DNA of 64,000 bases from a virus (taxonomy: Duplodnaviria; Heunggongvirae; Uroviricota; Caudoviricetes): the IMG/VR virus record IMGVR_UViG_3300007177_000114, one strand, 5' to 3'. The notes under the pieces were generated by a model. That model saw only the letters and a list, made by a program, of their open reading frames with translations. It was not told where the DNA came from and ran no database searches. The translations under genes were made by a program, and so were the position numbers. The stretch's first letter is position 1, and each line of letters begins with the position of its first letter. Of this stretch, positions 9,059-43,274 are shown one piece after another.

Positions 9059-9088
9059 CCTTATAACCCTATCCGGGATTAAAGTCAA
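9059..9088 (-). promoter_or_regulatory. conserved early promoter (TTGACT-N17-TATAAG), minus strand
   Basis: Reverse complement reads TTGACTTTAATCCCGGATAGGGTTATAAGG, followed by the ATG of the deaminase-like gene. Confidence 0.5.
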
Positions 9089-9262
9089 TCAAAACAGCCG
9101 ATCTTCTCACGTCGGCGAAGGGCTTCAGATACGAGCTGACCGAGCATGCCAATTTTATACTCTTGGTCGTTCATCACACGATTAAAGAGCTTTTGCTCAG
9201 AATCAGTCAACGTATGGTAAATAATATTGATGACTAGCTGATCATTTTCATCGTTCATGATT
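9089..9262 (-). CDS. hypothetical small protein (58 aa)
   Basis: Minus-strand ORF MNDENDQLVINIIYHTLTDSEQ..., with AGGTAGGTAA upstream; too short for the ORF track. Confidence 0.3.
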
Positions 9263-9270
9263 ACCTACCT

Positions 9271-9480
9271 TTAATTCTTATGCTTAGCGGCACAGGCCTG
9301 TGCCCATTCGATATTCTCTTGAATATTCTTTTCAAGAGCAATCTTTTGCTTCTTAGTGAGCTTGATATCCGGATTTTGCATCAGATCGCCGATTAGACCT
9401 TTCAGCCATCCGATGGCATAGTCCGAGCCAACGTCACACCTGAGAATATCGGTCAGTTCGTCGAGACGGTCACGGATCAT
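9271..9480 (-). CDS. hypothetical protein
   Basis: Start set at the ATG following the conserved leader (MIRDRL...); track ORF 9271..9501. Confidence 0.45.
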   Translation of the reverse strand: MIRDRLDELTDILRCDVGSDYAIGWLKGLIGDLMQNPDIKLTKKQKIALEKNIQENIEWAQACAAKHKN

Positions 9481-9507
9481 GTTTTGTCCCTCATTCATCA
9501 TAGTGTC

Positions 9508-9536
9508 TTTATACCACCTGGTTGGATTAAAGTCAA
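9508..9536 (-). promoter_or_regulatory. conserved early promoter, minus strand
   Basis: Reverse complement reads TTGACTTTAATCCAACCAGGTGGTATAAAG. Confidence 0.5.
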
Positions 9537-9905
9537 CCCAAGGAAATCAATGGGTTAGCGCTAAGTGGTTGATTTAATTACATAATATTTTTACAAAAAA
9601 ATTTAGCTAAACTTATCAATGGGTTAATTAGATCATCGTTTAAGTCGTGCTAGGTAGGCTTGGATGGGTTATCATACCGCTGAGGTGGCTTAGACTGCCG
9701 AGAACTGTCGTGAGCATCTAACCCATTGATATCATTGACTTTTATAAAACAGCTAACCTATTGAAAAGATTAGGTTTTATGCATATCCCTCATGGAACTG
9801 ATGTCGTCAGCTTACCGTTGGTGCAAAAAAGTTCAAAAAAGTTTTATAATCTTTTCAATGGGTTATGCCCATACTGATGCTAACCCATTGATATGTCACG
9901 GTTGA
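9536..9905. repeat. iteron/operator-like region A: multiple TCAATGGGTTA motifs in both orientations, including 26-bp palindromes
   Basis: Motif copies near 9550, 9617, 9662, 9723, 9752, 9852 and 9876; region is homologous to 26478..26880 and 42587..42950. Confidence 0.6.
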
Positions 9906-9930
9906 CTTTTAAACCAGGTTGCGGTATAAA
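9902..9930 (+). promoter_or_regulatory. conserved early promoter (TTGACTTTTAAACCAGGTTGCGGTATAAAG)
   Basis: -35 TTGACT at 9902-9907, 17-bp spacer, -10 TATAAA at 9925-9930; conserved leader GACTATGGACAAGGGATCAAACATG. Confidence 0.55.
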
Positions 9931-9954
9931 GAGACTATGGACAAGGGATCAAAC

Positions 9955-10179
9955 ATGACCGACTCTAGCGTTACGATCATTGAGTCTTACTGTGAATTTA
10001 ATGATCGGGTTACGGAAAATTTTTATGAAAATTTCACCCCAGATGATTGGTCTTACATCATCATTGCTGAGGATAAGGATGTTGCAATTAAGACTGCTGA
10101 AATGCTGCACCCTAGGGCAATTGATGTTGAGATTGCAAAGATCGGTGAAGAATTTTGGGTGGTAACTTACCATAGCTGA
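9955..10179 (+). CDS. hypothetical protein
   Basis: ATG at 9955 (MTDSSV...) preceded by AAGGGA; the MRYKETM prefix in the track is translated promoter sequence. Confidence 0.5.
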   Translation: MTDSSVTIIESYCEFNDRVTENFYENFTPDDWSYIIIAEDKDVAIKTAEMLHPRAIDVEIAKIGEEFWVVTYHS

Positions 10180-10188
10180 TTTTTCCCA

Positions 10189-10216
10189 TTGACATTTATC
10201 CTAGCCTGTGTATAAT
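10189..10216 (+). promoter_or_regulatory. sigma70-like promoter TTGACA-N16-TATAAT with conserved 28-nt leader (copy 1)
   Basis: TTGACATTTATCCTAGCCTGTGTATAATGGTTAGTGACCAAATAATGATGGTATAGG; a second copy lies at 28584..28640. Confidence 0.5.
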
Positions 10217-10347
10217 GGTTAGTGACCAAATAATGATGGTATAGGTAATGACTCGACAAGGTGATGCTAATGCCCGTTGGCTCCTGCTCCATGTACTGGT
10301 GGCAGGTCTGTTTGCCTTTACCATGGTTCTGATCGGAGGTATCTGAT

Positions 10348-10617
10348 ATGGCTAGGAAAACGTTTAACGTTGTAGAATTTAAGGAGCTGGTAAACAGCAC
10401 TCTTGCAAGTACACCTGAAGATGCAGTACAGTATAGACATGGTGTTATTGCTTGTCTAGAGTTTATTTTGCATGATACTGGCAATTATAAGGGATTTCGG
10501 TATCTCACTGCGGCTGAAGTGCCATATGGATTGCCGGGTATCAATGGACCGATTGAAGATCTTTCCTATGAAGAAAGGTTTGCAAACACCGACTCCACCA
10601 GGCGTGCATACAAATAA
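10348..10617 (+). CDS. hypothetical protein
   Basis: 89-aa ORF with GGAGGTATCTGATATG RBS. Confidence 0.5.
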   Translation: MARKTFNVVEFKELVNSTLASTPEDAVQYRHGVIACLEFILHDTGNYKGFRYLTAAEVPYGLPGINGPIEDLSYEERFANTDSTRRAYK

Positions 10618-10620
10618 ATG

Positions 10621-10648
10621 TTGACTTTATAAAGATACCTAATATAAA
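10621..10648 (+). promoter_or_regulatory. early promoter TTGACT-N16-TATAAA
   Basis: TTGACTTTATAAAGATACCTAATATAAAG upstream of the 10675 ORF. Confidence 0.4.
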
Positions 10649-10674
10649 GATCTTATACAAACAAGGAGACTAAA

Positions 10675-10851
10675 ATGCGCTATATCACTTATCAGATTGA
10701 AGATGCCAGGTCTTGGCTTGATATCGGTTCTGCAGAGGAAGGTACCTCTACTTCTGCTATGCTGTTTGAACTGCGTAATCTTAAGAATCGTTATCCAGAT
10801 CGTCGAGTTCGTTGCATTGATCCGGATGGTCGACTTCTAGATATGATGTAA
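10675..10851 (+). CDS. hypothetical small protein (58 aa)
   Basis: AAGGAG RBS 7 nt upstream of ATG; MRYITYQIEDARSWLDIG...; not in the track (under 60 aa). Confidence 0.4.
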   Translation: MRYITYQIEDARSWLDIGSAEEGTSTSAMLFELRNLKNRYPDRRVRCIDPDGRLLDMM

Positions 10852-11047
10852 TGTATAATTACACTTATAATAAATGTAGAATTCTACCTGCTAAACATGC
10901 ATGGGACATAATTTTAGAACATCAATGTTCTAGTTTACGACATGATATTTGTAGACGTACACATCTAGAGCTAGATATAATATATCAGTGCATTGATATT
11001 ATCAATGATGAGGATATAGAATAAATATCCGAAAAAGGATATTTTTT

Positions 11048-11758
11048 ATGCTTACATTCAGAGAATTTATAAATGAAGACTTAGAAAAAGTTGGCGATCA
11101 ACTTGGATCAAATCCTGGTGGTGTTTATAAGAACAAAAAGACTGGTGAAAAACACTATGTCAAGTTCTATAAAAATGGCGACCAGGCTAAATCTGAAGCA
11201 TTGACTGCCAAAATACATGAACACATGGGTATTCATACTCTTAAGCCAGAGTATAAGAATATTGATGGAAAACATGCTGTAGTCACTGGTTGGAATGATA
11301 AACTAGAAAAAATGAAACCCCATCACTTTGAGGGGTTGACAAAAGATCAACAAAATGATATAGGTAAGATGTATCATGCAGCAATTCTCACTAAGAATTG
11401 GGATATTGTTGGTCTAGATCATGATAATATTGAACGACATAAAGAAACTGGTAAACTACATTCAGTAGATGCTGGTGGTACATTTAACTTTAGAGCCCAG
11501 GGTGGGCATAAAGATTACGGTTCTGATATAGATGAAAAACATTCACTAATCTCTAGACCAGGAGAAGCTTCAACTCACGTTTTTTCTCATGTCTTTAAGC
11601 AGAATCCCGAGGCTAAAAAGCATGGATTAGATATAGTCAGAAAGATTGATATGAACCACGTAAAGGGTCTATTTAAATCTTCTGGCCTTCATAATCATGA
11701 AGAACTATATAATAATTTTGCTAAGCGTAGGGAAAAGCTATTGAAAGATGAGGATTAA
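11048..11758 (+). CDS. hypothetical protein with atypical kinase-like motifs
   Basis: 236 aa; LDHDNIERH ... KLHSVDAGG resembles catalytic-loop and DxG motifs of atypical kinase folds; tentative. Confidence 0.5.
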   Translation: MLTFREFINEDLEKVGDQLGSNPGGVYKNKKTGEKHYVKFYKNGDQAKSEALTAKIHEHMGIHTLKPEYKNIDGKHAVVTGWNDKLEKMKPHHFEGLTKDQQNDIGKMYHAAILTKNWDIVGLDHDNIERHKETGKLHSVDAGGTFNFRAQGGHKDYGSDIDEKHSLISRPGEASTHVFSHVFKQNPEAKKHGLDIVRKIDMNHVKGLFKSSGLHNHEELYNNFAKRREKLLKDED

Positions 11759-12063
11759 TGTGGATTTGTTTTAATGATGGATTTGTTTCTGTAGTTAAAG
11801 ATAAGCTTAATATAGACGATTTGGTTATTAGAGCTAGACGTAAAGAGATTTTGGAAAGACTTTTTCCAGATCGAGAAATTACCGTTCTTGGGGTTGCAGA
11901 TTATAAGTATAGGACTTACTGCAGTAAAGAAGAATGGTCAAACATTTTGGTTGACAGAGTTTCGGATATAGAGTATACTAACTTTAAGGATTCCACAACC
12001 GATCACGACTTACATGATTTATATGGTGAGATGTGGATGCTTCATTATCAATATCAACGCTAA
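11758..12063 (+). CDS. hypothetical protein
   Basis: ATGTGG start overlaps the upstream stop; 101 aa. Confidence 0.5.
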   Translation: MWICFNDGFVSVVKDKLNIDDLVIRARRKEILERLFPDREITVLGVADYKYRTYCSKEEWSNILVDRVSDIEYTNFKDSTTDHDLHDLYGEMWMLHYQYQR

Positions 12064-12126
12064 GATCAAAAAAATGTGTTGACAAACAAACTTTTTGGTT
12101 TAAAATGTTCAAATAATGATGAAGGA

Positions 12127-12348
12127 ATGATAAATATGGCTACTGAATCCAAAATTAATATGCTTTTTCGGGCTTTACTTGATCGTTCGGAGTCTTTGAC
12201 TGCACGACAAATTGCTGCTCGATATAGGATTTCCAATCCTTATGATCTAATTTATCGCCTTCGTAATGAAGGGATTAAAATTGAACGGCTAAAAACGACA
12301 AATAGTCGTGGTAAAATTGTATATCGCTATTCTTGGGGTGGAGTTTAA
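12127..12348 (+). CDS. small helix-turn-helix DNA-binding protein
   Basis: AAGGAA RBS; SLTARQIAARYRISNPYDLIYRLRNEGIKIE looks like an HTH/winged-helix; driven by TTGACA-N17-TAAAAT at 12084. Confidence 0.5.
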   Translation: MINMATESKINMLFRALLDRSESLTARQIAARYRISNPYDLIYRLRNEGIKIERLKTTNSRGKIVYRYSWGGV

Positions 12349-12395
12349 ACTCCACTTTCTTGATCTTTTATAATTGAATATGTAAAAAAGTTTAT

Positions 12396-12468
12396 GGGTG
12401 ATGGTAGCTAAGTGACTAGCTATTCACTAGCCGAAAGTAGGTATGCTAAGACTTCCTACCACCCATAA
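12396..12468 (+). other. tRNA-like structured element, unresolved
   Basis: GGGTGAT...ATCACCCA ends could form an acceptor-like helix and there is a GTAGG/CCTAC stem, but I could not obtain a canonical cloverleaf. Confidence 0.2.
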
Positions 12469-12471
12469 TAT

Positions 12472-12543
12472 GGACCGGTAGCTCAGAGGCAGAGCAGGTG
12501 GCTCTTAACCATCAGGTCGAGATTTCGAAATTCTCTCGGTCCT
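12472..12543 (+). tRNA. tRNA-Lys(CTT)
   Basis: Manual cloverleaf: acceptor GGACCGG/TCGGTCC, D arm GCTC-AGAGGCA-GAGC, anticodon loop CTCTTAA, T arm GAGAT-TTCGAAA-TTCTC. Confidence 0.7.
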
Positions 12544-12553
12544 CATAAGCACC

Positions 12554-12611
12554 TCGATTATATAAATAGCAATGACAATAAGACTATTATATAATCGAGG
12601 GTTAGCACAAC
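12554..12611 (+). promoter_or_regulatory. RBS-occluding hairpin containing a T4-type late promoter box (TATAAATA at 12561-12568) upstream of the GIY-YIG gene
   Basis: CCTCGATTATATAA...TTATATAATCGAGG inverted repeat; the GAGG Shine-Dalgarno lies in the 3' arm; conserved with 21855..21913. Confidence 0.55.
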
Positions 12612-13154: not shown

Positions 13155-13222
13155 TCCGAGCAAGCGAACGGACCCGGCTGTTAACCGGAGTTTGCCAGGG
13201 GCGGTACCTGGACGAGGAGCCA
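13146..13222 (+). tRNA. tRNA-Asn(GTT), noncanonical T-loop
   Basis: Acceptor TCCTCGT/ACGAGGA with G discriminator and encoded CCA; D arm TCCG...CGGA; anticodon loop CTGTTAA; T arm CCAGG-GGCGGTA-CCTGG (no TTC). Confidence 0.5.
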
Positions 13223-13324
13223 ATTAAAGAACGGCGCAACTTAGTCTACCCGATTAATTGCCGGATATAGTAGGGTAGAGTCCTTCGATGGTAAGCTGGC
13301 TTTGTCCCGTTCTTTAACTCACAT

Positions 13325-13401: not shown

Positions 13402-13570
13402 CTTTGGATCAGTAGCGTATAGGTCAGGCAAGTGCTACCACCGGGCTTTTAATCCGGCCGCAAGGGGAGCGTTACCTCACTGATCCTCCACTAAAGACAA
13501 GCGTAGAATGCAAATGAGTAGAGGATGACACTCATTATTGCCGTGCGATACGGCTAGTCTTATACTTTAA

Positions 13571-13646: not shown

Positions 13647-13649
13647 TTT

Positions 13650-13862: not shown

Positions 13863-13958
13863 GGTCCTGTAGCTCAATGGTAAGAGCGGAGAGCTTATAC
13901 CTCTCGTATGCACTAGATTGGTGCGCGGTTGGCGGTTCGAGTCCGTCCAGGACTACCA
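13863..13958 (+). tRNA. class-II (long variable arm) tRNA; anticodon reads TAT; identity unclear
   Basis: Acceptor GGTCCTG/CAGGACT, D arm GCTC-AATGGTAA-GAGC, anticodon arm GAGAG-CTTATAC-CTCTC, about 25-nt extra arm with GCAC/GTGC stem, T arm GGCGG-TTCGAGT-CCGTC, CCA. Confidence 0.45.
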
Positions 13959-23531: not shown

Positions 23532-23576
23532 CCATCAACTCCATAAAATTTGATGATATATTTAGGAATTAATGAT

Positions 23577-23927
23577 ATGATGACTTTGGGTAAACATCTT
23601 ATCTTAGAATTATGGGGAGCTCAAGGCTCCCTTCCCTTTTGGCAGATGGATGAAGCTGCCGAAGTACTTAAAAGAGCAGCTATTGATGCTGGTGCTACAG
23701 TTTTATCTGAAAGATGGCATCACTTTGGCGATGGTTGTGGATATACTGGAGTTGTGGTTCTATCAGAAAGTCATATATCCGTTCACACCTGGCCAGAGCA
23801 CGGTTATGCAGCACTTGATATATTTGTTTGCGGTCATGCAGATCCCATGCTTGCTATTCCTGCTATAGAAAAGTTTTATAGACCGACCGAAAAAACTATA
23901 ACTCTTCTAGAAAGAGGCAAAAAATAA
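23577..23927 (+). CDS. speD: S-adenosylmethionine decarboxylase proenzyme (SpeD, class 1)
   Basis: Motif VLSESHISVHTWPEHGYAALDIFVCG (processing serine and ExH); AGGA RBS before ATG 23577. Confidence 0.75.
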   Translation: MMTLGKHLILELWGAQGSLPFWQMDEAAEVLKRAAIDAGATVLSERWHHFGDGCGYTGVVVLSESHISVHTWPEHGYAALDIFVCGHADPMLAIPAIEKFYRPTEKTITLLERGKK

Positions 23928-23952
23928 AGGGGCATTTCTGCCCCTTTTTAGT
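23927..23952 (+). terminator. rho-independent terminator
   Basis: AAAGGGGCA-TTTC-TGCCCCTTTTT. Confidence 0.6.
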
Positions 23953-25831: not shown

Positions 25832-26044
25832 TTAACCGCGGTTCTTGCGGAGATAGACGTAGAGGGCGCCAGTGTATTCATTACACTTGACTGACAGAAG
25901 AACACCAAAATCCTTTGCTTCACGATACAGCTGAGAGAAAAAATCATCTTCATTTTGATGGATCTGAATATAGTAAAAGATATTAGTCCTTGACTTACCA
26001 GAAACCTCAAGTTCATCCCAAATGTCGTCGGTGTAGAAGGTCAT
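25832..26044 (-). CDS. hypothetical protein
   Basis: Start at the ATG after the conserved leader (MTFYTDD...); driven by the promoter at 26069..26097. Confidence 0.45.
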   Translation of the reverse strand: MTFYTDDIWDELEVSGKSRTNIFYYIQIHQNEDDFFSQLYREAKDFGVLLSVKCNEYTGALYVYLRKNRG

Positions 26045-26068
26045 ATTCTGTTCCTTATTCATAGTGAG

Positions 26069-26097
26069 AGTATATCCTATTCCGATTTTAAAGTCAA
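26069..26097 (-). promoter_or_regulatory. conserved early promoter, minus strand (TTGACT-N17-TATACT)
   Basis: Reverse complement TTGACTTTAAAATCGGAATAGGATATACT. Confidence 0.45.
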
Positions 26098-26105: not shown

Positions 26106-26429
26106 TTAGTCGCAATTGAGCGTCACGTGCAGGTCGTGGCCGTCCAGCTTGGCATTCCAACCGTCAACGATGAAGCCCGGGGAGCAGCCGCATCCGCAAC
26201 CAGCCTTCTGGCTCCACTTGATGCTCAGCTTGGATCGGTCGATCTCGAGCTTGTCCAGCGCCTTGAAAGCACCCTCACGGAACAGACCAATCGGACGGCT
26301 ACGGCGGTTGGTGAGATTGTCAAACAGCGTCTCACCCTCAGGCCAGATGTAGATGCGGGTCTTGATCTTATATCCGTTGCGCCGAGGGTTGGCCATGGGG
26401 ATCAGTCGAGTCTCAGTGATGTTCAGCAT
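26106..26429 (-). CDS. hypothetical protein
   Basis: Start MLNITE after the conserved leader; 107 aa. Confidence 0.5.
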   Translation of the reverse strand: MLNITETRLIPMANPRRNGYKIKTRIYIWPEGETLFDNLTNRRSRPIGLFREGAFKALDKLEIDRSKLSIKWSQKAGCGCGCSPGFIVDGWNAKLDGHDLHVTLNCD

Positions 26430-26453
26430 ATCAGCTTCCTTGTTCATAGTCAC

Positions 26454-26482
26454 TTTATACCGCAACCTGGTTTAAAAGTCAA
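26454..26482 (-). promoter_or_regulatory. conserved early promoter, minus strand
   Basis: Reverse complement TTGACTTTTAAACCAGGTTGCGGTATAAAG, identical to the plus-strand copy at 26874. Confidence 0.55.
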
Positions 26483-26880
26483 CCGTGACAAATCAATAGG
26501 TTAGTCTGGTCTGGTGGCTAACCTATTGAAAAGATTATCAAAAAATTTTTTCGCTTATCCAAAAAAAATTTCAAAAAAGTTTGAGTGTCCAGGTTACCAG
26601 GCGCTCATAGAACCATAAAATGAATGATATCAATGGGTTAGCTCTATCCACAAAGTCAATGATATCAATGGGTTAGGCTAAGAGAACGGCTCACATCGTG
26701 CTAAATCTGCTTGAATGGGTATACCATAGGCCTAACCTCAAGCTAGAACGGCATCCATGCTAACATATTGATATCATTTAACTTGCATTTTTTTCAAAAA
26801 AATGCAAGTGGTCAAACTGAATCATATCAATGGGTTATGGATCACGGTTAGCTAACCCATTGATTTCCTTAGGTTGACTT
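26478..26880. repeat. iteron/operator-like region B
   Basis: TCAATAGGTTA-N15-TAACCTATTGA and TCAATGGGTTA-N15-TAACCCATTGA inverted pairs plus further single motif copies; flanked by divergent conserved promoters. Confidence 0.6.
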
Positions 26881-26902
26881 TTAAACCAGGTTGCGGTATA
26901 AA
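26874..26902 (+). promoter_or_regulatory. conserved early promoter
   Basis: TTGACTTTTAAACCAGGTTGCGGTATAAAG plus leader TGACTATGAACGAGGTGACAAACATG. Confidence 0.55.
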
Positions 26903-26926
26903 GTGACTATGAACGAGGTGACAAAC

Positions 26927-27088
26927 ATGACCGATGATAAAGCTTTCCGAATCCGTCAGGCCCTCAAGGAGACAACTTATCTCCTTAACAAGGAGCTGGA
27001 GTATCCGGTCGGGTTGCAGAAGGCTGATATGGTCGCCTTTTATCGTCGGCATATTGCTACCCTGACCGCCCGGCTCAAAAATCTGTAA
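26927..27088 (+). CDS. hypothetical small protein
   Basis: ATG 26927 (MTDDKAFRIRQ...) after the conserved leader RBS. Confidence 0.45.
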   Translation: MTDDKAFRIRQALKETTYLLNKELEYPVGLQKADMVAFYRRHIATLTARLKNL

Positions 27089-27096
27089 GATACGTA

Positions 27097-27125
27097 TTGA
27101 CTTTAATTCCAAGTTGAGTTATAAG
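27097..27125 (+). promoter_or_regulatory. conserved early promoter (TTGACT-N17-TATAAG)
   Basis: TTGACTTTAATTCCAAGTTGAGTTATAAG. Confidence 0.5.
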
Positions 27126-27149
27126 ATGACTATGAACAAGGAAGTAAAA

Positions 27150-27437
27150 ATGAACATCAACGAAATCTGTGCCGCTATCCTCAAGATGGATAACCTCGAG
27201 GACGTCCGTAATCTTTCTCAGCGCCTTAATGCAACAATTAAGGCACGCTATGCTGAACTCCAGCGTCACAAGGCCTATACCCTTGGTGTGGGCATGCGAG
27301 TCGAGTTCAATGACAAGCGTGGTAACATTGTCACCGGCAAGATTACCAAGATTAACACCAAGACCGTGGAAGTTTTTGCCGATCGCTCTGGTGTTAAGTG
27401 GAGGGTGACGCCTTCTCTTCTCCGTGAAGCGGCCTAG
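27150..27437 (+). CDS. hypothetical protein
   Basis: ATG 27150 (MNINEICAAILK...); 95 aa. Confidence 0.5.
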   Translation: MNINEICAAILKMDNLEDVRNLSQRLNATIKARYAELQRHKAYTLGVGMRVEFNDKRGNIVTGKITKINTKTVEVFADRSGVKWRVTPSLLREAA

Positions 27438-27439: not shown

Positions 27440-27468
27440 TTGACTTTAATTCCAAGTTAAGTTATAAG
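27440..27468 (+). promoter_or_regulatory. conserved early promoter
   Basis: TTGACTTTAATTCCAAGTTAAGTTATAAG, near-identical to 27097. Confidence 0.5.
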
Positions 27469-27492
27469 ATAATTATGAACAAGGAAGTGAGA

Positions 27493-27876
27493 ATGACCAG
27501 GGAAACCATCAAGCAGCGCCGTGAGCGTGAACGACAGGAACAAGAAGCGTTGGAACAAAAGTTCCAGGCTGAAAAGCCTATTCGTCTGCTTCATGCAATG
27601 GCTCGAGCTGAAAGTCTGGGTGTAAAGGCTTCGGTCTATTACCGATATGACGATGTATTGTACTATGAATTTGATTTCACCCGGATTAATCTACCCAATT
27701 CTCTTGATATCATTTGTGATCCGTATGAAGAGTTAAGTTCTTGGACTATGGATAGCATTGAAAATCAACTATATAAGGTTCATGAAAAACAGAATCGAGC
27801 TGGATATCTTAAAAATCTTAGAGTAGAACTTCTTGCTCGACTGTCACAAGACGAACGTGAAGCACTAGGATTTTAA
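27493..27876 (+). CDS. hypothetical protein
   Basis: ATG 27493 (MTRETIKQRRERE...). Confidence 0.5.
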   Translation: MTRETIKQRRERERQEQEALEQKFQAEKPIRLLHAMARAESLGVKASVYYRYDDVLYYEFDFTRINLPNSLDIICDPYEELSSWTMDSIENQLYKVHEKQNRAGYLKNLRVELLARLSQDEREALGF

Positions 27877-28583: not shown

Positions 28584-28611
28584 TTGACATTTATCTTTTC
28601 ATTGGTATAAT
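28584..28611 (+). promoter_or_regulatory. sigma70-like promoter with conserved leader (copy 2 of 10189..10245)
   Basis: TTGACATTTATCTTTTCATTGGTATAATGGTTAGTGACCAAATGATGATGGTATAGG. Confidence 0.5.
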
Positions 28612-28648
28612 GGTTAGTGACCAAATGATGATGGTATAGGAATTTAAA

Positions 28649-28864
28649 ATGCCAATGAAATCTATAAATTATAGACTTAGATTTATAATTATCAGAAATG
28701 TGATGCATGAACTTCAATCTAAAGTTGATATGCAACTAATTTATTTTATACAAGATAAAACTAGATTTAATACTCCTATGAGATTTAGTTTAGAGTCACA
28801 GATACGTAGAGATGAAATTCTACCTATAAAATATGAAAATGATATCAGAGATTATAGAGAATAA
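28649..28864 (+). CDS. hypothetical small protein, paralogous to the next ORF
   Basis: SINYRLRFIIIRN... resembles SVNYELKNNHELRFIFYKS... in 28868..29056. Confidence 0.35.
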   Translation: MPMKSINYRLRFIIIRNVMHELQSKVDMQLIYFIQDKTRFNTPMRFSLESQIRRDEILPIKYENDIRDYRE

Positions 28865-33149: not shown

Positions 33150-33177
33150 TTGACAAAGACTAAATCGGATATATAAT
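33150..33177 (+). promoter_or_regulatory. promoter TTGACA-N16-TATAAT with conserved leader (copy 1)
   Basis: GGTTGACAAAGACTAAATCGGATATATAATCCACTATATAATGAATGAGGG; second copy at 33432. Confidence 0.5.
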
Positions 33178-33206
33178 CCACTATATAATGAATGAGGGTT
33201 TAAATA

Positions 33207-33428
33207 ATGTCTGATCTTAAGTTTTGCAAGAACTGCAAGTATGTGACTCCTGATCCATGGAGCTATATTCCCTTTGTAGGAAAAAGCTTTGATAAGTTTG
33301 CAAAATGTTCTCATCCGCAATTTGTAGAGGTTAATCTTGTTACCGGTGAATCTACAATTAGCAGATATTGTGCTACTGCAAGAATATTTGATTGTGGTGA
33401 AAAAGCTAAGTACTTTGAACCAAAATAA
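33207..33428 (+). CDS. hypothetical small cysteine-rich protein
   Basis: CKNCKY ... CSHP ... YCATARIFDCGEK; 73 aa. Confidence 0.45.
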   Translation: MSDLKFCKNCKYVTPDPWSYIPFVGKSFDKFAKCSHPQFVEVNLVTGESTISRYCATARIFDCGEKAKYFEPK

Positions 33429-33431: not shown

Positions 33432-33460
33432 TTGACAGATACTAAATTTTAGATTATAAT
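33432..33460 (+). promoter_or_regulatory. promoter TTGACA-N17-TATAAT with conserved leader (copy 2)
   Basis: GGTTGACAGATACTAAATTTTAGATTATAATCCACTATATAATGAATGAGGTG. Confidence 0.5.
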
Positions 33461-33486
33461 CCACTATATAATGAATGAGGTGTAAA

Positions 33487-33846
33487 ATGGGTAATCGAAT
33501 TTCTGCTTTTCATGCTATTCCTTTTTCCAATAGTATTGGTCAAACAATTCTTCCTGGCGAAAAAATTATTTTTGCTGCAACTGCATGGAAAAATACTCGC
33601 ATTAAACAGGGTACATTTGATGGTGTAAATAAGGACTCTAAAGATCAGATTACATCTGTTCGAGTTTCTTATCCAATCAATAATTATGTTCATAATGGCA
33701 AATATGAACCGACTGTGCGTCAGCGCTATAATTATCAGACTCGTCGATATGAAGATTATACATATGATCGCCCTCTTTATGATATTGTTCCGGGTATCGG
33801 TCGTTCAACACTTCCTCTCAAGCGAGTCTTTAAGATTGCCGAATAA
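33487..33846 (+). CDS. hypothetical protein
   Basis: ATG 33487 (MGNRISAFHA...); 119 aa. Confidence 0.45.
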   Translation: MGNRISAFHAIPFSNSIGQTILPGEKIIFAATAWKNTRIKQGTFDGVNKDSKDQITSVRVSYPINNYVHNGKYEPTVRQRYNYQTRRYEDYTYDRPLYDIVPGIGRSTLPLKRVFKIAE

Positions 33847-33923: not shown

Positions 33924-33998
33924 GCAGATGTGATGTAATGGTTAGCAAAACGATCTCTAAAATCGTGTGTCAGGGTTCAATTCCCTGCATCTGCACCA
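33924..33998 (+). tRNA. amber-suppressor-type tRNA (anticodon CTA, reads UAG)
   Basis: Perfect acceptor GCAGATG/CATCTGC plus A plus CCA; D arm TGT-AATGGTTA-GCA; anticodon arm ACGAT-CTCTAAA-ATCGT (perfect 5 bp, U33, A37); T arm CAGGG-TTCAATT-CCCTG. Confidence 0.65.
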
Positions 33999-34959: not shown

Positions 34960-35058
34960 AGGATGGTTTCAGCAAACCATTATAGTAGCTCAATGGATGA
35001 GCAAGTGTCATCAAAACACTCGGTGTAGGTTCGAATCCTACCTAAAAAACACCATCCT
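34960..35058 (+). ncRNA. Y-RNA-like unit 3 with embedded tRNA-like domain (D arm, TCA anticodon-like hairpin, T arm GTAGG-TTCGAAT-CCTAC)
   Basis: Stem AGGATGG/CCATCCT; TTTCAGCAA motif; internal GCTC-AATGGAT-GAGC, AGTGT-CATCAAA-ACACT and a canonical T arm; no acceptor pairing of its own. Confidence 0.45.
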
Positions 35059-38350: not shown

Positions 38351-39736
38351 ATGAATATTCTTAAAAATATCCTGCTGAATGTTGATAGCTACAAACTCTC
38401 AATGTTTGAGCAATACCCAGAAGGGACTGAAATTGTCCACAGCTACATTGAATCCCGTGGTGGTGAACATGCTGAGACACTATTCTTTGGTCTACAGGGC
38501 TTCATCAAGGATTATCTTCTAAAGCCAGTCACCATGGAAGATATTAATATTGCAGAAGAAATTCTTCAAGCCCATGGTGAACCGTTTAATCGTGCCGGTT
38601 GGGAATACATTGTAAACAAACACGGTGGTAAATTACCAGTTCATATCTGTGCAGTACCAGAAGGTACCGTTGTTCCTGTTAGCAATGTTCTTGTAACTAT
38701 TGAAAATACAGATAAGAATTGTTTCTGGTTAACTACACATCTTGAAACAGCTTTACTTCGAGCAATTTGGTACCCTACAACTGTAGCAACTAACAGCAAA
38801 GCCATCAAGAATCTAATTAAAGAATTCCTTGAAAAGAATGGTGATCCTGCTGGTCTAGGTTTTAAATTACATGACTTTGGTGCTCGTGGTGTATCTAGTC
38901 AAGAATCCGCTGGGATTGGTGGTGCTGCCCATCTAATTAATTTCATGGGTACCGATACCATTGCTGGTATTCTTTGGGCTCGTGAACATTATAATGCTGG
39001 TGTTGCTGGTTTCTCTATTCCTGCAGCAGAGCATAGCACTATTACAAGTTGGGGTCGTCCTCATGAAGTAAAAGCATATGAAAATATGCTGAATAAATTT
39101 GCAAAGCCTGGATCCATTCTTGCTGTTGTAAGTGATAGCTATGATGTATTCAATGCAGCAGAAAATCTCTGGGGTGGTGAACTAAAGCAAAAAGTACTTG
39201 ACTCTGGTGCTACTCTGGTAATTCGGCCCGACTCTGGCCATCCAGTACATGTAAACTGTAAACTTGTAGAAATTCTAGATAATAAATTTGGTTCTACAAT
39301 CAATAACAAAGGATTTCGTGTTCTGAATAATGTGCGTTTGATTCAGGGTGATGGTGTTAATTTTGATACTGTCAAAAAGATTCTTACCGCATTCCATAAT
39401 GATGGATACTCTGCTGATAATATTGCCTTTGGTATGGGTGGTGCTCTTCTACAGCATGTCAATCGAGACACACAGAAGTTTGCTATGAAATGCTCTGCTG
39501 TGCGTGTTGGTCAGCATGATTGGAGAAAGGTTCTTAAAGATCCTATTACCGACTCTGGTAAGAAAAGTAAGGCAGGTCTACTTGAACTTTGGCGCAAAGA
39601 TAAAAACTTTGCTACTTCTGAAACTGCTCCTGAACTACTCAATGGTTGGGAACGTGGACTAGAAACCGTCTACCTAAATGGTGAACTAATCCGTGATATG
39701 ACCTTTGAGGAAATCAGGAATAATTCAAATGCCTAA
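38351..39736 (+). CDS. nadV: nicotinamide phosphoribosyltransferase (NadV/NAMPT)
   Basis: 461 aa, NAMPT-family length and motifs (GTDTIAG, DSYD); adjacent to natV, as in KVP40-like phages. Confidence 0.8.
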   Translation: MNILKNILLNVDSYKLSMFEQYPEGTEIVHSYIESRGGEHAETLFFGLQGFIKDYLLKPVTMEDINIAEEILQAHGEPFNRAGWEYIVNKHGGKLPVHICAVPEGTVVPVSNVLVTIENTDKNCFWLTTHLETALLRAIWYPTTVATNSKAIKNLIKEFLEKNGDPAGLGFKLHDFGARGVSSQESAGIGGAAHLINFMGTDTIAGILWAREHYNAGVAGFSIPAAEHSTITSWGRPHEVKAYENMLNKFAKPGSILAVVSDSYDVFNAAENLWGGELKQKVLDSGATLVIRPDSGHPVHVNCKLVEILDNKFGSTINNKGFRVLNNVRLIQGDGVNFDTVKKILTAFHNDGYSADNIAFGMGGALLQHVNRDTQKFAMKCSAVRVGQHDWRKVLKDPITDSGKKSKAGLLELWRKDKNFATSETAPELLNGWERGLETVYLNGELIRDMTFEEIRNNSNA

Positions 39737-39763
39737 CAAAAGGGGAGCCATATGGCTCCCCTT
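39737..39763. terminator. bidirectional rho-independent terminator
   Basis: AAAAGGGGAGCCATATGGCTCCCCTT palindrome between convergent genes. Confidence 0.6.
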
Positions 39764-39766
39764 ACT

Positions 39767-40039
39767 TTATGGCTCATATCCCATACGAAGTAAATCATGA
39801 ACATATAATAAAGCGGTTTCTTTAGCTGATTCCAAAGAAAAGTGCATTCCTTTAGAGTTTACGGCTTTATTTTTCCACATTATGAAATAAACTCCATAAT
39901 TTGGCTGATAAGCAATTGATACCTCGGTAGTATATAAATTTAATATACCTGGCGCAGTTACAATCCATTCTGGTTCAAGATCAAAATCCAATTTTTTCTC
40001 CATACAAAAAACCCTTGTGCATGTATTTATTATGCACAA
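39767..40039 (-). CDS. hypothetical protein
   Basis: 90-aa ORF. Confidence 0.45.
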   Translation of the reverse strand: MCIINTCTRVFCMEKKLDFDLEPEWIVTAPGILNLYTTEVSIAYQPNYGVYFIMWKNKAVNSKGMHFSLESAKETALLYVHDLLRMGYEP

Positions 40040-40056
40040 GGGTTTTATTTTATAAA

Positions 40057-40329
40057 CTATTCAGATAGAGTTCTATAACTGATAGTTACATTTTCACCAA
40101 ACTCATCAAAGATTTGTTTTCGTAGGATATTTCTTGCATTTTCAACCATAACACCACTTTCTCTTGTGTCATATACTGTAAGAGTTCTTGTTCCACAGTT
40201 CTTAAGAACTTTAGCTTCTAGCGTGTACTTCTTGAACTTGCTTAAATCTTTCTTTTTTCGAAGTTCTGTGAAGTAACCATATGGCTTGTTGTTCCAAATA
40301 TCCTCTAGTTCTTCTCGTGTAAAAGTCAT
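40057..40329 (-). CDS. hypothetical protein
   Basis: 90-aa ORF. Confidence 0.45.
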   Translation of the reverse strand: MTFTREELEDIWNNKPYGYFTELRKKKDLSKFKKYTLEAKVLKNCGTRTLTVYDTRESGVMVENARNILRKQIFDEFGENVTISYRTLSE

Positions 40330-40733
40330 GAAGCCTCCAAAATATGCTTACAAGAACGCCTAAATCCAAATCCAGGGCAAGTGCAGTTCTTGATCTTGCC
40401 GTTGATAGTCACAGTATATACATTACCTTTAGAGCCATTTACTTTAAAAGTCTTTTTTGTTGATATTTCAATAATTGGCTCTTGTGCTTTATCATCAATA
40501 GACACAACTTGGTGCCTAGGGATAATCCTCATACGAGAGGGAATATTGGCTGTAATGCAAATAGAGTCTTTTTCCACCCACGAAGGAGTAGGAAGAAGAT
40601 CGCCATAAAAGGTATTATATTGTTCGACGTGAAAAAAGCACAAATGCTTCTTATCCCACATTGGATTTTTAGCTACAATTTTCATCACAGCACCAAAAAT
40701 ACAAAAATTAGAAAAGCAAAAACCAAAATCCAA
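40326..40733 (-). CDS. SWIM zinc-finger protein
   Basis: C-terminal CTCPGFGFRRSCKH (CxC...CxH SWIM motif); the true start may be the internal MKIVAKN at 40685. Confidence 0.4.
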   Translation of the reverse strand: MDFGFCFSNFCIFGAVMKIVAKNPMWDKKHLCFFHVEQYNTFYGDLLPTPSWVEKDSICITANIPSRMRIIPRHQVVSIDDKAQEPIIEISTKKTFKVNGSKGNVYTVTINGKIKNCTCPGFGFRRSCKHILEAS

Positions 40734-40742
40734 GTAATTATA

Positions 40743-41081
40743 TCATTGATATCCAATTGCATTTTGATTCATTCTCCATATAAGTTTTGCTGCCATTTTG
40801 GCGATACATACTCCTGTCATTAAAGACCATCCTTCTTGTGCTTCTGTAAGGATTTGATCATCAATTAGAGGCTTGAGATTATATACAATTCTATCCCAGC
40901 TTCGGATATCAATATCATTGAAATTTTCATCTTCAGAGTTAATGATATTGATGTGCCCAATTCTGTTATCTACATATTGTAGTACTTCGTCCGTGATAAA
41001 TTGGCCATAGTACTCATCAAAAGAGCATCGACTATAAAGATAATCCCTACGTGTATACATTATACTGGCTCTAGTTCCCAA
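40743..41081 (-). CDS. hypothetical protein
   Basis: 112-aa ORF. Confidence 0.45.
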   Translation of the reverse strand: MGTRASIMYTRRDYLYSRCSFDEYYGQFITDEVLQYVDNRIGHINIINSEDENFNDIDIRSWDRIVYNLKPLIDDQILTEAQEGWSLMTGVCIAKMAAKLIWRMNQNAIGYQ

Positions 41082-41311
41082 CGTGAAGATATAACTTGTT
41101 CCGGATTAATCCACCGCATATCGGCATTTGGATCATTTTTAGGAATAATAAGAAGCTTGGTTGTATCAATGAAATGAGACTTTACAATCCATTCCTCACC
41201 GAAACGTTTGATAGCACCTTTTTCGGTGTTTCTGGTAGGTTTCCACTTAACGATCTTAATTGACATTTTTAACTCCACTCGGTTCGGTAATCTCGAACGT
41301 GTACCATCCAT
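41060..41311 (-). CDS. hypothetical protein
   Basis: 83-aa ORF overlapping its neighbours by short distances. Confidence 0.4.
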   Translation of the reverse strand: MDGTRSRLPNRVELKMSIKIVKWKPTRNTEKGAIKRFGEEWIVKSHFIDTTKLLIIPKNDPNADMRWINPEQVISSRWELEPV

Positions 41312-41639
41312 CCCAATTCTTTTTTGGCTTCGGCATGGATGGGTCGGTGTAACCGTACTTAGTCATGAGCATCTTAGCGAAGCGGTGGCAGCTCGGCACA
41401 TCGTAGCTCGAAAATGATACACGCCGAACACCAGGCGGCACTACAACCGGGGTCTTACGTTCCTCGAGCATTTCCGGAACCATATTCTTGGTGCTGTTAA
41501 AGAACGGACCCTTTGCAGGTTCAGTCTTAGCCACCACCGGCTTTGGAGTCTTAGAAGCCTTGAAGTGCACCGGTTCATCCGGCACATAAGCGTCATTCTT
41601 GGGCTTGTTCTTAGAACCTTTGGGACGGCCACGAGGCAT
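41256..41639 (-). CDS. basic DNA-binding-like protein (AT-hook-like PRGRPKGSK N-terminus)
   Basis: 127 aa, GC-richer codon usage. Confidence 0.45.
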   Translation of the reverse strand: MPRGRPKGSKNKPKNDAYVPDEPVHFKASKTPKPVVAKTEPAKGPFFNSTKNMVPEMLEERKTPVVVPPGVRRVSFSSYDVPSCHRFAKMLMTKYGYTDPSMPKPKKNWDGWYTFEITEPSGVKNVN

Positions 41640-41791
41640 ATGATATCTCCTGATTACTTTGGAATTATACCAAACTTACAAAAAAAGTCAAGGGTTCTTT
41701 CGGCACCTTGACTCCTTTTCTTGTGTAGGCCTTCTTGTTCTTAACGACTCTCTTATGATACCGAGGGTCAATTAAGACCCTAGCAACAGGG

Positions 41792-42256
41792 TTACGTTTT
41801 ATCGGCTTTCTTTTTTGCATTTTCCTTATACTCCATGAATCGGATATACAGACCTAATTCACGTCCATATGCCTCAATTTCCCACGGCAAATCCCAATAG
41901 TCCGTGGTATGTGTATTTACCATTACGCCACGAAATTTGGTCACGTGAGGCTTGCGTTCGTAATGACGGCTTTCACCGGTAGCATACTGCTTGACATGAA
42001 CCATCTCGTGTGCAAGCGACGTCAGCACTTCCTTGTCCGTGCCGTTGGGGTTGATCTGCAGAACAAACTCACGGGGGCGAGTCAGTTCGTCAATGGGATT
42101 GCAGAGTCCATCCACACCATCATCCTTGAAAATGACCTTGACAGTCAGATGCTTGACCAACTGTCGGTTCATAAGGGTGTTGGCATAGAACTGCACTGCA
42201 TCGTGGATGAGCGTCCGAGAGATCGTTTTCGGGCACTTGTAAACCGAAACCAGCAT
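41792..42256 (-). CDS. SprT-like zinc metalloprotease-domain protein
   Basis: HEMVHVKQY (HExxH) motif; 154 aa. Confidence 0.45.
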   Translation of the reverse strand: MLVSVYKCPKTISRTLIHDAVQFYANTLMNRQLVKHLTVKVIFKDDGVDGLCNPIDELTRPREFVLQINPNGTDKEVLTSLAHEMVHVKQYATGESRHYERKPHVTKFRGVMVNTHTTDYWDLPWEIEAYGRELGLYIRFMEYKENAKKKADKT

Positions 42257-42307
42257 GATTACCTCATAACGTGATACTTGTGGTTATATCCCAATCTGAG
42301 ATTAAAG

Positions 42308-42532
42308 TCAATCGGTAATTTCACGCTTGGAGATGCGCTGCCACTTCTTCCGAGGCTTGCGCCCGGCGCTACCGTCGTAATAGCCATCCTCGTCAAACGA
42401 CGTGCGCCCACCCAGATGCGACAGATTGGTCTTCCGCCTGGACCGCTTCGACATCTTGTCTGCCGAGCTGTGGTAGCGCCCATCCGAGGCGATCGTCACG
42501 TTCATCTTATCCATAGTCCCACCAAAAGTCAT
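42308..42532 (-). CDS. hypothetical basic protein
   Basis: Start at the ATG after the conserved leader (MTFGGTMDKM...). Confidence 0.45.
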   Translation of the reverse strand: MTFGGTMDKMNVTIASDGRYHSSADKMSKRSRRKTNLSHLGGRTSFDEDGYYDGSAGRKPRKKWQRISKREITD

Positions 42533-42559
42533 CTTAGTTACCTCATTCATCATAGTGTC

Positions 42560-42588
42560 TTTATACCACCTGGTCGGATTAAAGTCAA
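42560..42588 (-). promoter_or_regulatory. conserved early promoter, minus strand
   Basis: Reverse complement TTGACTTTAATCCGACCAGGTGGTATAAAG. Confidence 0.5.
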
Positions 42589-42950
42589 CCCAAGGAAATC
42601 AATACGTTAGCCTTAACCCATTGAAAAGATTATAAAAACTTTTTTGAACTTTTTTGCATGGGTTTGGCGAGCAGCAGGAGCTCGACATCATTAAGACGGT
42701 AAAACTTAATCTTTTCAATAGGTTAGCATATCCTCAGAATGTAAGGAAATCAATGGGTTAGGCTATAAGAACGGCTCTCGGCAGTCTAAGTCACCTAAGC
42801 GGTATGATAACCCTCTTAGAACCGCTTAGACTGCCGAGAGCCCGGCATAGATGCTAACCCATTGAAAAGATTATATACTGAAAAAAAGTTCAAAAAATAT
42901 TTTCAATCATATCAATCACTTAGCGCTAACCCATTGATATCATTAGGTTG
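42587..42950. repeat. iteron/operator-like region C
   Basis: TCAATACGTTA-GCCT-TAACCCATTGA, TCAATCACTTA-GCGC-TAACCCATTGA and further TCAATGGGTTA / TAACCCATTGA copies; hairpin CTCGGCAGTCTAAG...CTTAGACTGCCGAG; shares the 17-nt prefix AACCCAAGGAAATCAAT with region A. Confidence 0.6.
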
Positions 42951-42976
42951 ACTTTTAAATTAGGTTGAGGTATAAA
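42948..42976 (+). promoter_or_regulatory. conserved early promoter
   Basis: TTGACTTTTAAATTAGGTTGAGGTATAAAG plus leader GACTATGAACAAGGTGACAAACATG. Confidence 0.55.
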
Positions 42977-43000
42977 GAGACTATGAACAAGGTGACAAAC

Positions 43001-43237
43001 ATGACCGACTCCACCGACCGCCTCCTCGGCTGCATCCGTATCTCGCCCGAGGGTGAGTACCACCCCGGCAAGTACACCATCGAGACGTTCGGCTACTGGA
43101 ACCAGGATGAACCGTCCTGGGGCATGCCGGCATGGGACGAGCGTGGGTGGTCTGAGTTTGCCACCCACTTCGACTCTTATGCCATGGCCGAGAAGGCTAT
43201 TGCGGATTCGTGGTGGAATCCGGATTGGATCGCCTAA
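43001..43237 (+). CDS. hypothetical protein
   Basis: ATG 43001 (MTDSTDRLLGCIRISPEGEY...). Confidence 0.5.
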   Translation: MTDSTDRLLGCIRISPEGEYHPGKYTIETFGYWNQDEPSWGMPAWDERGWSEFATHFDSYAMAEKAIADSWWNPDWIA

Positions 43238-43245
43238 AACTTCTG

Positions 43246-43274
43246 TTGACTTTAATCTCAGCTGATGGTATAAA
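43246..43274 (+). promoter_or_regulatory. conserved early promoter
   Basis: TTGACTTTAATCTCAGCTGATGGTATAAAG. Confidence 0.5.

Follow-up and report, generated by a model that had tools for sequence, protein, structure and literature searches.

Why do mutually unrelated small genes of one phage begin with almost the same nucleotides? This question is raised by the IMG/VR virus record IMGVR_UViG_3300007177_000114, of which a 64-kb stretch (64,000 nucleotides; hereafter called the window) was analysed. In the window, a promoter sequence followed by a short 5′ leader occurs thirteen times, each time in front of an open reading frame (ORF). As described below, the thirteen copies probably constitute one family of portable sigma70-type early expression cassettes, which resembles the promoter-early stem-loop (PeSL) elements of T4-like phages and provides recombination joints for foreign ORFans. 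An ATG codon, here called ATG1, lies at the predicted transcription start (+1), and six of the copies form the ends of what would be control modules.

Thirteen copies of one cassette

How many copies are there, and how uniform are they? A preliminary description had listed twelve sites, all of which were recovered with their positions and strands, and a thirteenth was found at 42283-42311 (-). An nhmmer profile built from the copies gave exactly 13 matches in the 64 kb, with E values from 3.4e-17 to 5.3e-6, while the next match had E=1.5. The word TTGACTTTWAA, allowing at most one mismatch, occurs 19 times against 7.7 expected, and none of 100 shuffled sequences reached 19. The cassette consensus consists of an extended -35 element TTGACTTT, a spacer of 16-17 bp, a -10 element TATAA(A/G), and an ORF directly downstream. 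TTGACT is present in all thirteen copies, the spacer is 17 bp in 12 of them, and the -10 element is TATAAA, TATAAG, TATACT, or TATAAC. In every copy, the ORF begins 0-32 nt past the -10 element, and an AAGG or GAGG Shine-Dalgarno sequence (SD) lies 6-9 nt ahead of an ATG in 11-12 of the 13 copies. The start region around ATG1 is fixed (A-N-T-ATG-A) and is followed by the purine-rich SD and usually by a second in-frame ATG (ATG2). The earlier reading of the copies as sigma70-type promoters, each aimed at an ORF, agrees with the sequence in 13/13 cases (TTGACT, 16-17 bp spacer, TATA-type -10 element, ORF downstream), and they are treated here as predicted promoters. The early-type promoters of the genome backbone have TTGACA, 16-17 bp, and TATAAT, and none of them has an ATG 6 nt past the -10 element.

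The copies are located in three islands of raised G+C content at about 8.7-11.0 kb (island A), 24.6-27.9 kb (island B), and 41.3-43.7 kb. In island A, the copy at 9051-9088 (-) has its -35 element TTGACT at 9088-9083, its -10 element TATAAG at 9065-9060, and an ATG at 9053-9051 (E 3.4e-12). This ATG is the sole start codon of a 131-amino-acid gene of the cytidine/dCMP-deaminase family (8658-9053; PF00383, 7e-13), which has neither an ATG2 nor a separate leader. Next come the two copies at the ends of module A, the first of three modules (A, B, and C) described below. The left one (9478-9536, -; E 2.7e-14) has its -35 element at 9536-9531, its -10 element at 9513-9508, ATG1 at 9501-9499, the SD GAGGG, and an in-frame ATG at 9480-9478, and it heads the ORF 9271-9501. 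The right one (9902-9957, +; E 9.9e-17) has the -35 element at 9902-9907, the -10 element at 9925-9930, ATG1 at 9937-9939, and ATG2 at 9955-9957, and it heads an ORF extending to 10179. The copy at 10621-10677 (+; E 5.3e-6) is a divergent member of the family, with a 16-bp spacer, the -10 element TATAAA at 10643-10648, no ATG1, a canonical SD AAGGAG, and an ATG at 10675-10677.

Island B holds five copies. The copy at 26042-26097 (-; E 9.9e-13) has the -35 element at 26097-26092, the -10 element TATACT at 26074-26069, ATG1 at 26062-26060, and ATG2 at 26044-26042, and it heads the ORF 25832-26062. The left end of module B (26427-26482, -; ATG1 26447-26445, ATG2 26429-26427; E 3.4e-17) heads the ORF 26106-26447, and the right end (26874-26929, +; ATG1 26909-26911, ATG2 26927-26929; E 3.9e-17) heads an ORF extending to 27088. 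Two tandem copies follow, at 27097-27152 (+; ATG1 27132-27134, ATG2 27150-27152; E 1.6e-14) and at 27440-27495 (+; ATG1 27475-27477, ATG2 27493-27495; E 3.7e-13), with ORFs extending to 27437 and 27876, respectively.

In the third island, the copy that had been overlooked (42254-42311, -; E 8.9e-10) has the -35 element at 42311-42306, the -10 element TATAAC at 42288-42283, a separate mini-ORF ATGAGGTAA at 42267-42259, and the main ATG at 42256-42254, and it heads a 154-amino-acid ORF (41792-42256). The left end of module C (42530-42588, -; E 3.3e-15) has ATG1 at 42553-42551 and an in-frame SD-led ATG at 42532-42530, and it heads the ORF 42308-42553. The right end (42948-43003, +; E 2.3e-16) has ATG1 at 42983-42985 and ATG2 at 43001-43003 and heads an ORF extending to 43237. 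The last copy is a tandem one (43246-43304, +; E 2.5e-15), with ATG1 at 43281-43283, an in-frame SD-led ATG at 43302-43304, and an ORF extending to 43508.

What do the cassettes carry? The cassette proteins share no similarity to each other, and Pfam and PHROG gave no function for them. Since the downstream proteins are unrelated, the N-terminal peptides which they appear to share cannot come from gene duplication, and this origin was rejected. The mean G+C content at third codon positions is 0.54 in the cassette genes and 0.23 in 22 backbone genes (Mann-Whitney p=5e-7); such GC-rich cargo indicates real horizontal import. Thus, one regulatory cassette is attached to many foreign-looking small ORFan genes. 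The 154-amino-acid protein encoded at 41792-42256 (-) contains the motif HEMVH, resembles SprT-like proteins weakly (E 0.005), and is conserved in three related genomes (L020, L158, and L002) behind differing leader variants.

Exchange of cassettes among related genomes

What kind of phage is this? The window encodes a family-B DNA polymerase, gp43 (48179-50689), whose best matches are the gp43 proteins of T4-like cyanophages, with at most 48-49% identity among cultured phages. The T4 core gene order is intact, with gp45 (5758-6411), gp44 (6472-7410), gp62 (7407-7880), and RegA (7919-8314; PF01818, E 1e-45), and the regA homologue lies about 750 bp from island A. A DnaB-type helicase and 28 tRNA genes are also encoded. 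At the DNA level, cultured phages gave no match to island B by megablast or to module C by sensitive blastn. From the T4-type polymerase and gene order, combined with this lack of a cultured DNA match, it follows that the source is an uncultured T4-type myovirus. In T4 relatives, regA lies immediately before gene 43 (PMC3014915). Here, the gap between the two genes is about 40 kb and is filled by the three islands, the 28 tRNA genes, and metabolic genes.

Is the cassette family found in other phages of this kind? The relatives compared here (L-numbers) are IMG/VR sequences whose polymerases are 77-96% identical to that of the window, and the same promoter family occurs in them at homologous places. 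A search of IMG/VR with the exact promoter pattern gave a single match, in an unrelated AT-rich contig, which was judged to be a chance match. In L019, a 162-kb relative, island A is absent beside the homologue of the gene at 11048.

The comparison with the closest relatives places the breakpoints at the promoter copies. Homology to L007, the closest relative (polymerase 96% identical), spans window positions 41008 to 42986 and ends inside ATG1 of the copy at 42948 (+). It resumes at 43246, which is the first base of the -35 element of the next copy. Between these points, the window has one ORF, whereas L007 has two unrelated ORFs and an extra promoter copy. L002 lacks the window cassette 42986-43245, and its homology resumes exactly at the same -35 element (43246). 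The single promoter that L002 has there is a hybrid, with an upstream half like the copy at 42948 (+) and a leader and gene like those at 43246 (+). L002 also has two other cassettes in place of the cassette 42322-42528. In L022, two window cassettes (26919-27436) are replaced by about 230 bp of other sequence, again between promoter copies.

The copies also seem to be homogenised within a genome: the copy at 42588 (-) is 96% identical to its paralogue at 9536 (-) and 88% identical to its orthologue at 1985 (-) of L007. Paralogues within one genome are often closer than orthologues, and in L010 (TAGGATCTGACTATGAAT) and L015 (TATATTCTGATTATG), variants specific to the genome are common to both promoters of a module. 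A simple mechanism may be proposed. Each cassette copy would drive a different small ORFan gene, and the near-identical copies would let the phage recombination system cross over between them. Such crossovers would insert, delete, or replace gene cassettes and, at the same time, homogenise the copies within a genome. Homogenisation by recombination, together with the functional promoter and ribosome-binding parts, would then explain most of the conservation.

Leader conservation and the upstream start codon

The preliminary description had stressed that the leader is conserved well beyond what a promoter needs and had suggested a shared post-transcriptional element. Is the leader the conserved part? 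Information content was computed over 39 distinct copies from the window and its relatives; ATG1 itself was a selection criterion for this set, while its flanking bases were not. The values in bits per position are 1.92 for the -35 element, 0.91 for the 17-bp spacer, 1.57 for the -10 element, 1.12 for the six bases between the -10 element and ATG1, 1.00 for +4 to +12, and 0.38 for +13 to +21. The excess conservation is therefore true but was incompletely described, because the spacer is about as conserved as positions +4 to +12 of the leader. Since the leader overall is no more conserved than the untranscribed spacer, most of the excess belongs to the cassette as a unit. Much of the conservation seems to reflect common descent and homogenisation of a recombination cassette rather than selection on a leader element. 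Nor was any conserved RNA structure found in the leaders: the alignment for covariation that had been proposed gave 0 consensus pairs (RNAalifold, 11 leaders), and an Rfam scan of the whole window at gathering thresholds gave only tRNAs. A structured cis-regulatory RNA of the riboswitch or leader type was rejected on these grounds. A linear operator, for example for RegA, is a less likely form of the post-transcriptional idea and is weighed below.

Within the start region, the 39 copies vary as little at A(-3), T(-1), ATG, and A(+4) as they do in the promoter hexamers. ATG1 is located exactly 6 nt past the -10 element (its first base is 7 nt after the last base of the hexamer) in 11 of the 13 window copies, and at the same distance in every module-proximal copy of the relatives. 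In the standard sigma70 geometry, the transcription start is expected at this distance from the -10 element, with a pyrimidine at -1 and a purine at +1. Transcription is thus predicted to begin at the A of ATG1, so that the mRNAs would carry a 5′-terminal AUG. Leaderless initiation could take place at this AUG; in most cassettes it would act alongside the SD-led ATG, and in some it would be the only start codon. The upstream ATG had been taken to be out of frame. On the contrary, ATG1 is in frame with the SD-led ATG2, with no intervening stop, in all ten window copies that have both (spacing of 18 nt in seven copies and 21 nt in three), and MNKVTNM, one of the peptides quoted in the preliminary description, already shows this.

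Which ATG is the real start codon? The SD-led ATGs, which had been regarded as the real ones, are plausible starts in 10-11 copies, but three genes, namely the window deaminase gene, its orthologue in L100, and a 41-codon gene in L149, have no start codon other than the conserved ATG1. The L100 deaminase is 98% identical and has a different promoter variant with the same geometry, TATAACcaaagtATG (TATAAC caaagt ATG), and no SD; in L101-L103, the deaminase gene has no promoter of its own. In the L149 cassette, the 41-codon ORF for an acidic 41-amino-acid protein starts from ATG1, there is no SD or second ATG, and the other frames are closed. Its L151 orthologue has the usual ATG1-GAGG-ATG2 leader. 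Over 22 codons, the two genes differ by 10 synonymous and 0 non-synonymous changes. Such purifying selection indicates that the L149 gene is a real gene which has lost the SD route. An AUG start without an SD in front of a real gene, the mark of a leaderless mRNA such as the classic one of lambda cI, was thus found in the deaminase genes of the window and L100 and in the L149 gene. With ATG1 as the only start codon of at least three clearly real genes, leaderless or dual-mode translation is suggested. A 36-codon hydrophobic ORF in L007 (2354, +) also begins directly at ATG1. The in-frame leader peptide is kept in 7/7 database homologues of the cassette ORF 43001-43237, in the variants MNKVTNM, MNKGYDM, MMKETNM, MNEELIM, and MNKGMTDM.

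These results divide the recurring N-terminal peptides, all of which had been called fakes, into two classes. The prefixes MRYKETM, MRYKVTM, and MSYKMTM, derived from TTG or GTG codons and read through the spacer and the -10 element, are artefacts. The MNKxxxM and MMNExxxM peptides may be real N-termini, since ATG1 is the sole start of real genes. For annotation, no start should be placed at a TTG or GTG inside the promoter, and ATG1 should be weighed alongside ATG2.

Some further leaders were observed. In L022 (5037-5130, the right promoter of module B), the 18-nt leader is duplicated perfectly, in tandem and in frame (ATGAACAAGGGAATGACG twice), which looks like slippage or unequal crossover within the cassette. 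A second promoter-plus-leader repeat family is present at 10189-10260 and 28584-28655, with a perfect TTGACA, 16 bp, and TG-TATAAT, followed by GGTTAGTGACCAAAT(A/G)ATGATGGTATAGG; related leaders follow promoters in L010 (6249), L015 (6340), and L012 (688). The backbone early promoters at 33150-33215, 33432-33500, and 51035-51100 have leaders of the form ACTATA-TA-ATGAATGAGG or similar. These are the ACTAT...ATGAATGAGG words of the cassette leader, offset by a few bases, and here the upstream ATG is not in frame. In this phage, the leader motif therefore extends beyond the family of 13 copies.

Dyad-symmetric modules between divergent copies

Six of the thirteen copies are the outward-facing ends of the modules A, B, and C, which are divergent intergenic regions of about 370 bp each. 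The three modules align together in both orientations, and each is therefore a large imperfect palindrome. Module A (9537-9901, 365 bp) is a divergent intergenic region with six copies of the 12/13-mer CTAACCCATTGAT, A/T tracts, and a central partial palindrome. In module B (26483-26873, 391 bp), the 13-mer occurs seven times, and two of these copies, at 26629 and 26664, form a tandem pair with a 35-bp spacing. Module C (42589-42947, 359 bp) has six copies, including a tandem pair at 42714 and 42749, and a central palindrome with a 17-bp stem, GCTCTCGGCAGTCTAAG...CTTAGACTGCCGAGAGC (-63.7 kcal/mol). With up to two mismatches, CTAACCCATTGAT has 22 matches in the window against 2.1 expected, and 19 of them are inside the modules. 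One copy lies 9 bp upstream of each module -35 element, and each module has a tandem pair, A/T tracts such as AAAAAAGTTCAAAAAAGTTTT, and a palindrome at its centre. DnaA-box-like words were seen by eye in module B; they are single and imperfect.

Are the modules conserved? The module architecture is kept at all three homologous positions in the relatives, even where the flanking cassettes differ, and the 35-bp spacing of the tandem pair is strictly kept in 8/8 modules examined. The tandem 12-mer pattern was found in 17 IMG/VR stretches; it has 0 matches in 185,579 bacterial and archaeal genomes and so gives no clue to the host. Of the eight modules, only module C and that of L010 (-56.5 kcal/mol) have a strong central hairpin, and these two hairpins differ in sequence; the remaining six are weak. 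The pattern was therefore read as variable homogenisation of the arms of a palindrome, and a selected RNA or DNA fold was rejected. Packed with the 12/13-mer, the modules are probably protein-bound control regions for the divergent promoters.

Weighing of the explanations

Several observations speak against the cassettes being PeSL-like joints with a start codon at +1. The +1 assignment comes solely from the usual distance between the -10 element and the start. Two window copies lack ATG1, as do about half of the tandem copies in the more distant relatives, and several of these copies in the relatives carry a canonical AAGGAG, as does the window copy at 10621 (+). Of 47 copies, about 10 have an ATG1 that begins no more than a short upstream ORF (3-12 codons; 26 in one case), which usually stops beside the main ATG. 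Although 38 of 49 copies are in frame, counting independent indel events gives about 4-5 in-frame against 8-9 frame-shifting ones; with no clear excess, selection for the in-frame arrangement was dropped. The -10 region of the window deaminase copy, TATAAGGA, could serve as an SD on a read-through RNA, and that case alone is not decisive. An upstream hairpin, although part of the PeSL definition, is not significant at the seven tandem copies (fold z -0.5 to +1.8). Lastly, ordinary homologous recombination would also put breakpoints at repeats, with no need for a dedicated mobility.

What might the modules do? The 12/13-mers might be host IHF sites, at which IHF bends the module and sets the activity of both divergent promoters. 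On the complementary strand, (A/T)ATCAATGGGTTA fits the published IHF consensus WATCAANNNNTTR (PMC9452768, PMC10380432). The window has 24 exact matches to this consensus against 8.7 expected, and 15 of the 24 lie inside the modules, which together span 1.1 kb. The tandem sites are 35 bp apart, and an IHF footprint covers about 35 bp. A host factor is plausible in that no IHF/HU homologue was found in the window; tblastn for IHF, HU, and TF1-like genes gave nothing below E=0.9. However, the four positions that are N in the consensus (TGGG) are as conserved as the IHF-critical ones (1.0-1.8 bits), and among 110 sites, the critical A of WATCAA is kept in 55 and replaced by T in 40 (about 40%). 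Moreover, the match of one repeated word to a 16-bit consensus is a post hoc observation. IHF is a possible but rather doubtful reader. It is unlikely, too, that the modules are replication origins of the T4 oriE kind, with the promoter copies conserved as origin components and with the repeats, A/T tracts, and early promoters priming or opening the DNA. In T4, oriE carries 12-nt iterons at even spacing and requires an early promoter, and the active origins lie at a transcription strand switch (PMC3016281). Each module here is exactly at a strand switch, has 6-7 repeats with the 35-bp tandem spacing (8/8), A/T tracts, and a central palindrome, and holds its position at all three sites in the relatives while the flanking cassettes change. 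Yet even in T4 the iterons have no proven role (PMC3016281). The module repeats are for the most part inverted, unlike direct repeats at even spacing, an initiator gene is not regularly found next to the modules, and the seven tandem copies outside the modules are left unexplained.

A linear operator acting on RNA is close to the idea of the preliminary description. In T4, RegA represses about 30 early mRNAs, and its binding sites, such as AAAUUAUGAUU of gene 44, are unstructured and rich in A+U and include the AUG (PMC3014915). A post-transcriptional regulator, most likely the RegA encoded near island A, might bind the unstructured AUG region and jointly shut off the cassette genes after the early period. 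The near-invariant A-N-U-AUG-A and the A-rich run before ATG2 are indeed unstructured. However, T4 sites are A+U-rich with a 5′ poly(A) tract, while nothing would lie 5′ of ATG1 if transcription starts there, and the leaders hold a G-rich SD. In addition, the surroundings of ATG2 are poorly conserved (0.38 bit), and with an untranscribed spacer as conserved as the leader, leader conservation alone needs no RNA-level function. This operator is quite improbable. Is any function needed, then? The copies might be recent duplicates of one promoter that have not yet diverged, with ATG1 as a functionless passenger and the cassette boundaries as a coincidence. The similar conservation of spacer and leader, the closeness of paralogues, and the lack of clear favour for in-frame spacing by event count are all in line with this. 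Against it, the family, the ATG1 geometry, and the modules persist in relatives with 77% identical polymerases and diverged spacers; the bases flanking ATG1 equal the -35 and -10 hexamers in conservation; genes under purifying selection have no start codon other than ATG1; and three independent genome comparisons put breakpoints inside copies. Recent duplication is a very unlikely explanation of the whole.

The portable expression cassette, exchanged by recombination, is the preferred explanation. If it is true, the exchanged unit would be a complete plug-in expression module, comprising promoter, transcription start, start codon, and SD, and a captured foreign gene would be expressed at once. 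PeSL-type modular shuffling would then reach a deeply branching, uncultured part of the T4 superfamily. The fixed position of ATG1 at the predicted +1, together with genes that rely on it alone, would clearly exemplify systematic leaderless or dual-mode initiation in a T4-type phage. For a group with no known early-promoter control regions or origins, the three modules would be concrete candidates for either. A wider proposal can be made only tentatively. The portable cassette may start transcription on the AUG itself, and captured genes may be translated both leaderless by 70S ribosomes and through an SD-led start 18-21 nt further on in the same frame, which would make their expression robust to the state of the host or to a translation apparatus altered by the phage. 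The modules might then be dual-purpose early control regions, perhaps also oriE-like origins, which seed the arrays on both sides.

Other features of the window

Two of the tRNA genes have anticodons that would read stop codons. The tRNA at 33924-33998 has the anticodon CTA (amber; labelled Pyl by ARAGORN), and the one at 34979-35050 has TCA (opal; labelled SeC). Both are good tRNAs in Rfam, with 59 and 50 bits. Because the standard code leaves the large genes of the window intact, recoding, if it occurs, would affect genes elsewhere. The tRNA-Ile(TAT) at 13863-13958 is 96 nt in length (ARAGORN), about 20 nt above its neighbours, and may hold an intron or insertion. Auxiliary genes assigned by Pfam are an NAMPT/NAPRTase gene (38351-39736) and a gene with DUF6267 and cytidylyltransferase domains (55083-57212). 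An S-adenosylmethionine-decarboxylase-like ORF (23550-23927) and an Hsp20-like ORF (46697-47146) were assigned by visual inspection alone. A strong terminator-like hairpin, AAAGGGGCAGAAATGCCCCTTT followed by a T-run, is present at 23926-23947 (-), where the leftward array of island B has its far end, and it may end the transcription of this array facing the rightward backbone.

Comparison with known systems

How do the cassettes and modules compare with known systems? In E. coli, mRNAs with a 5′-terminal AUG upstream of an SD-led start (5′-uAUG mRNAs) bind 70S ribosomes and function as both leaderless and leadered messages (Beck, Fleming and Janssen 2016; PMC4965119). The cassettes likewise have an AUG at the predicted 5′ end, upstream of the SD-led start. 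They differ in being a repeated portable module on many genes of one phage and in that the AUG, known here from sequence alone, is mostly in frame and would give an N-terminal extension rather than a separate upstream ORF. T4 RegA operators (PMC3014915), too, are start regions that contain an AUG, lack structure, and belong to many early genes, and the window encodes a RegA homologue. The T4 operators are A+U-rich, with a 5′ poly(A) tract and no strong consensus, while the leaders here have a fixed sequence with a G-rich SD and are not rich in A+U. ATG1 is not preceded by a 5′ A tract, and only some copies have an A-rich run ahead of ATG2.

The modules share with T4 oriE (Kreuzer and Brister 2010) the clustered repeats of 12-13 nt, the early-type promoters, the strand switch, and syntenic conservation. 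The comparison covers architecture as read from the DNA. The modules differ in that their repeats are mostly inverted with dyad symmetry and that three near-identical modules are found within 64 kb. Like IHF sites in phage control regions, the module repeats show an exact consensus match (15 module sites) and an AT-rich 5′ flank and lie beside promoters. Unlike in those sites, conservation is just as high at the non-consensus positions, which points to another reader of the 12/13-mer or to an additional one.

The closest parallel is the PeSL. PeSLs are mobile regulatory cassettes of T4-like phages, consisting of strong early promoters that end in an SD and ATG. They are grouped in hyperplastic regions, where ORFans are inserted, deleted, and replaced through them, and the crossovers have been mapped to the stretch from the -10 element to the ATG (Arbiol et al. 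2010; Comeau et al. 2014; PMC2839356, PMC4122927). The cassettes of the window share the repeated near-consensus sigma70 promoter, predicted to be early, and the SD and start codon at the 3′ end of the element (11-12 of 13 copies). They also share the location in hyperplastic islands with flanking ORFans (three islands between regA and gene 43) and the indels and replacements in close relatives with junctions inside the copies (L007, L002, and L022). On the other hand, the tandem copies of the window have no upstream terminator stem-loop; a hairpin of inverted 13-mers, without a T-run, is found upstream of 3 of the 6 module-proximal copies (z -3.0 to -3.5). The cassettes further differ in having a fixed ATG at the predicted +1 that may act alone, in that six copies belong to large dyad-symmetric modules with a repeated 12/13-mer, and in a cargo strongly enriched in G+C relative to the backbone. 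The fixed ATG at the predicted +1, the repeat-laden modules, and the GC-rich cargo do not appear in these two PeSL studies (PMC2839356, PMC4122927), and they would set this family apart as a distinct variant of the PeSL type.

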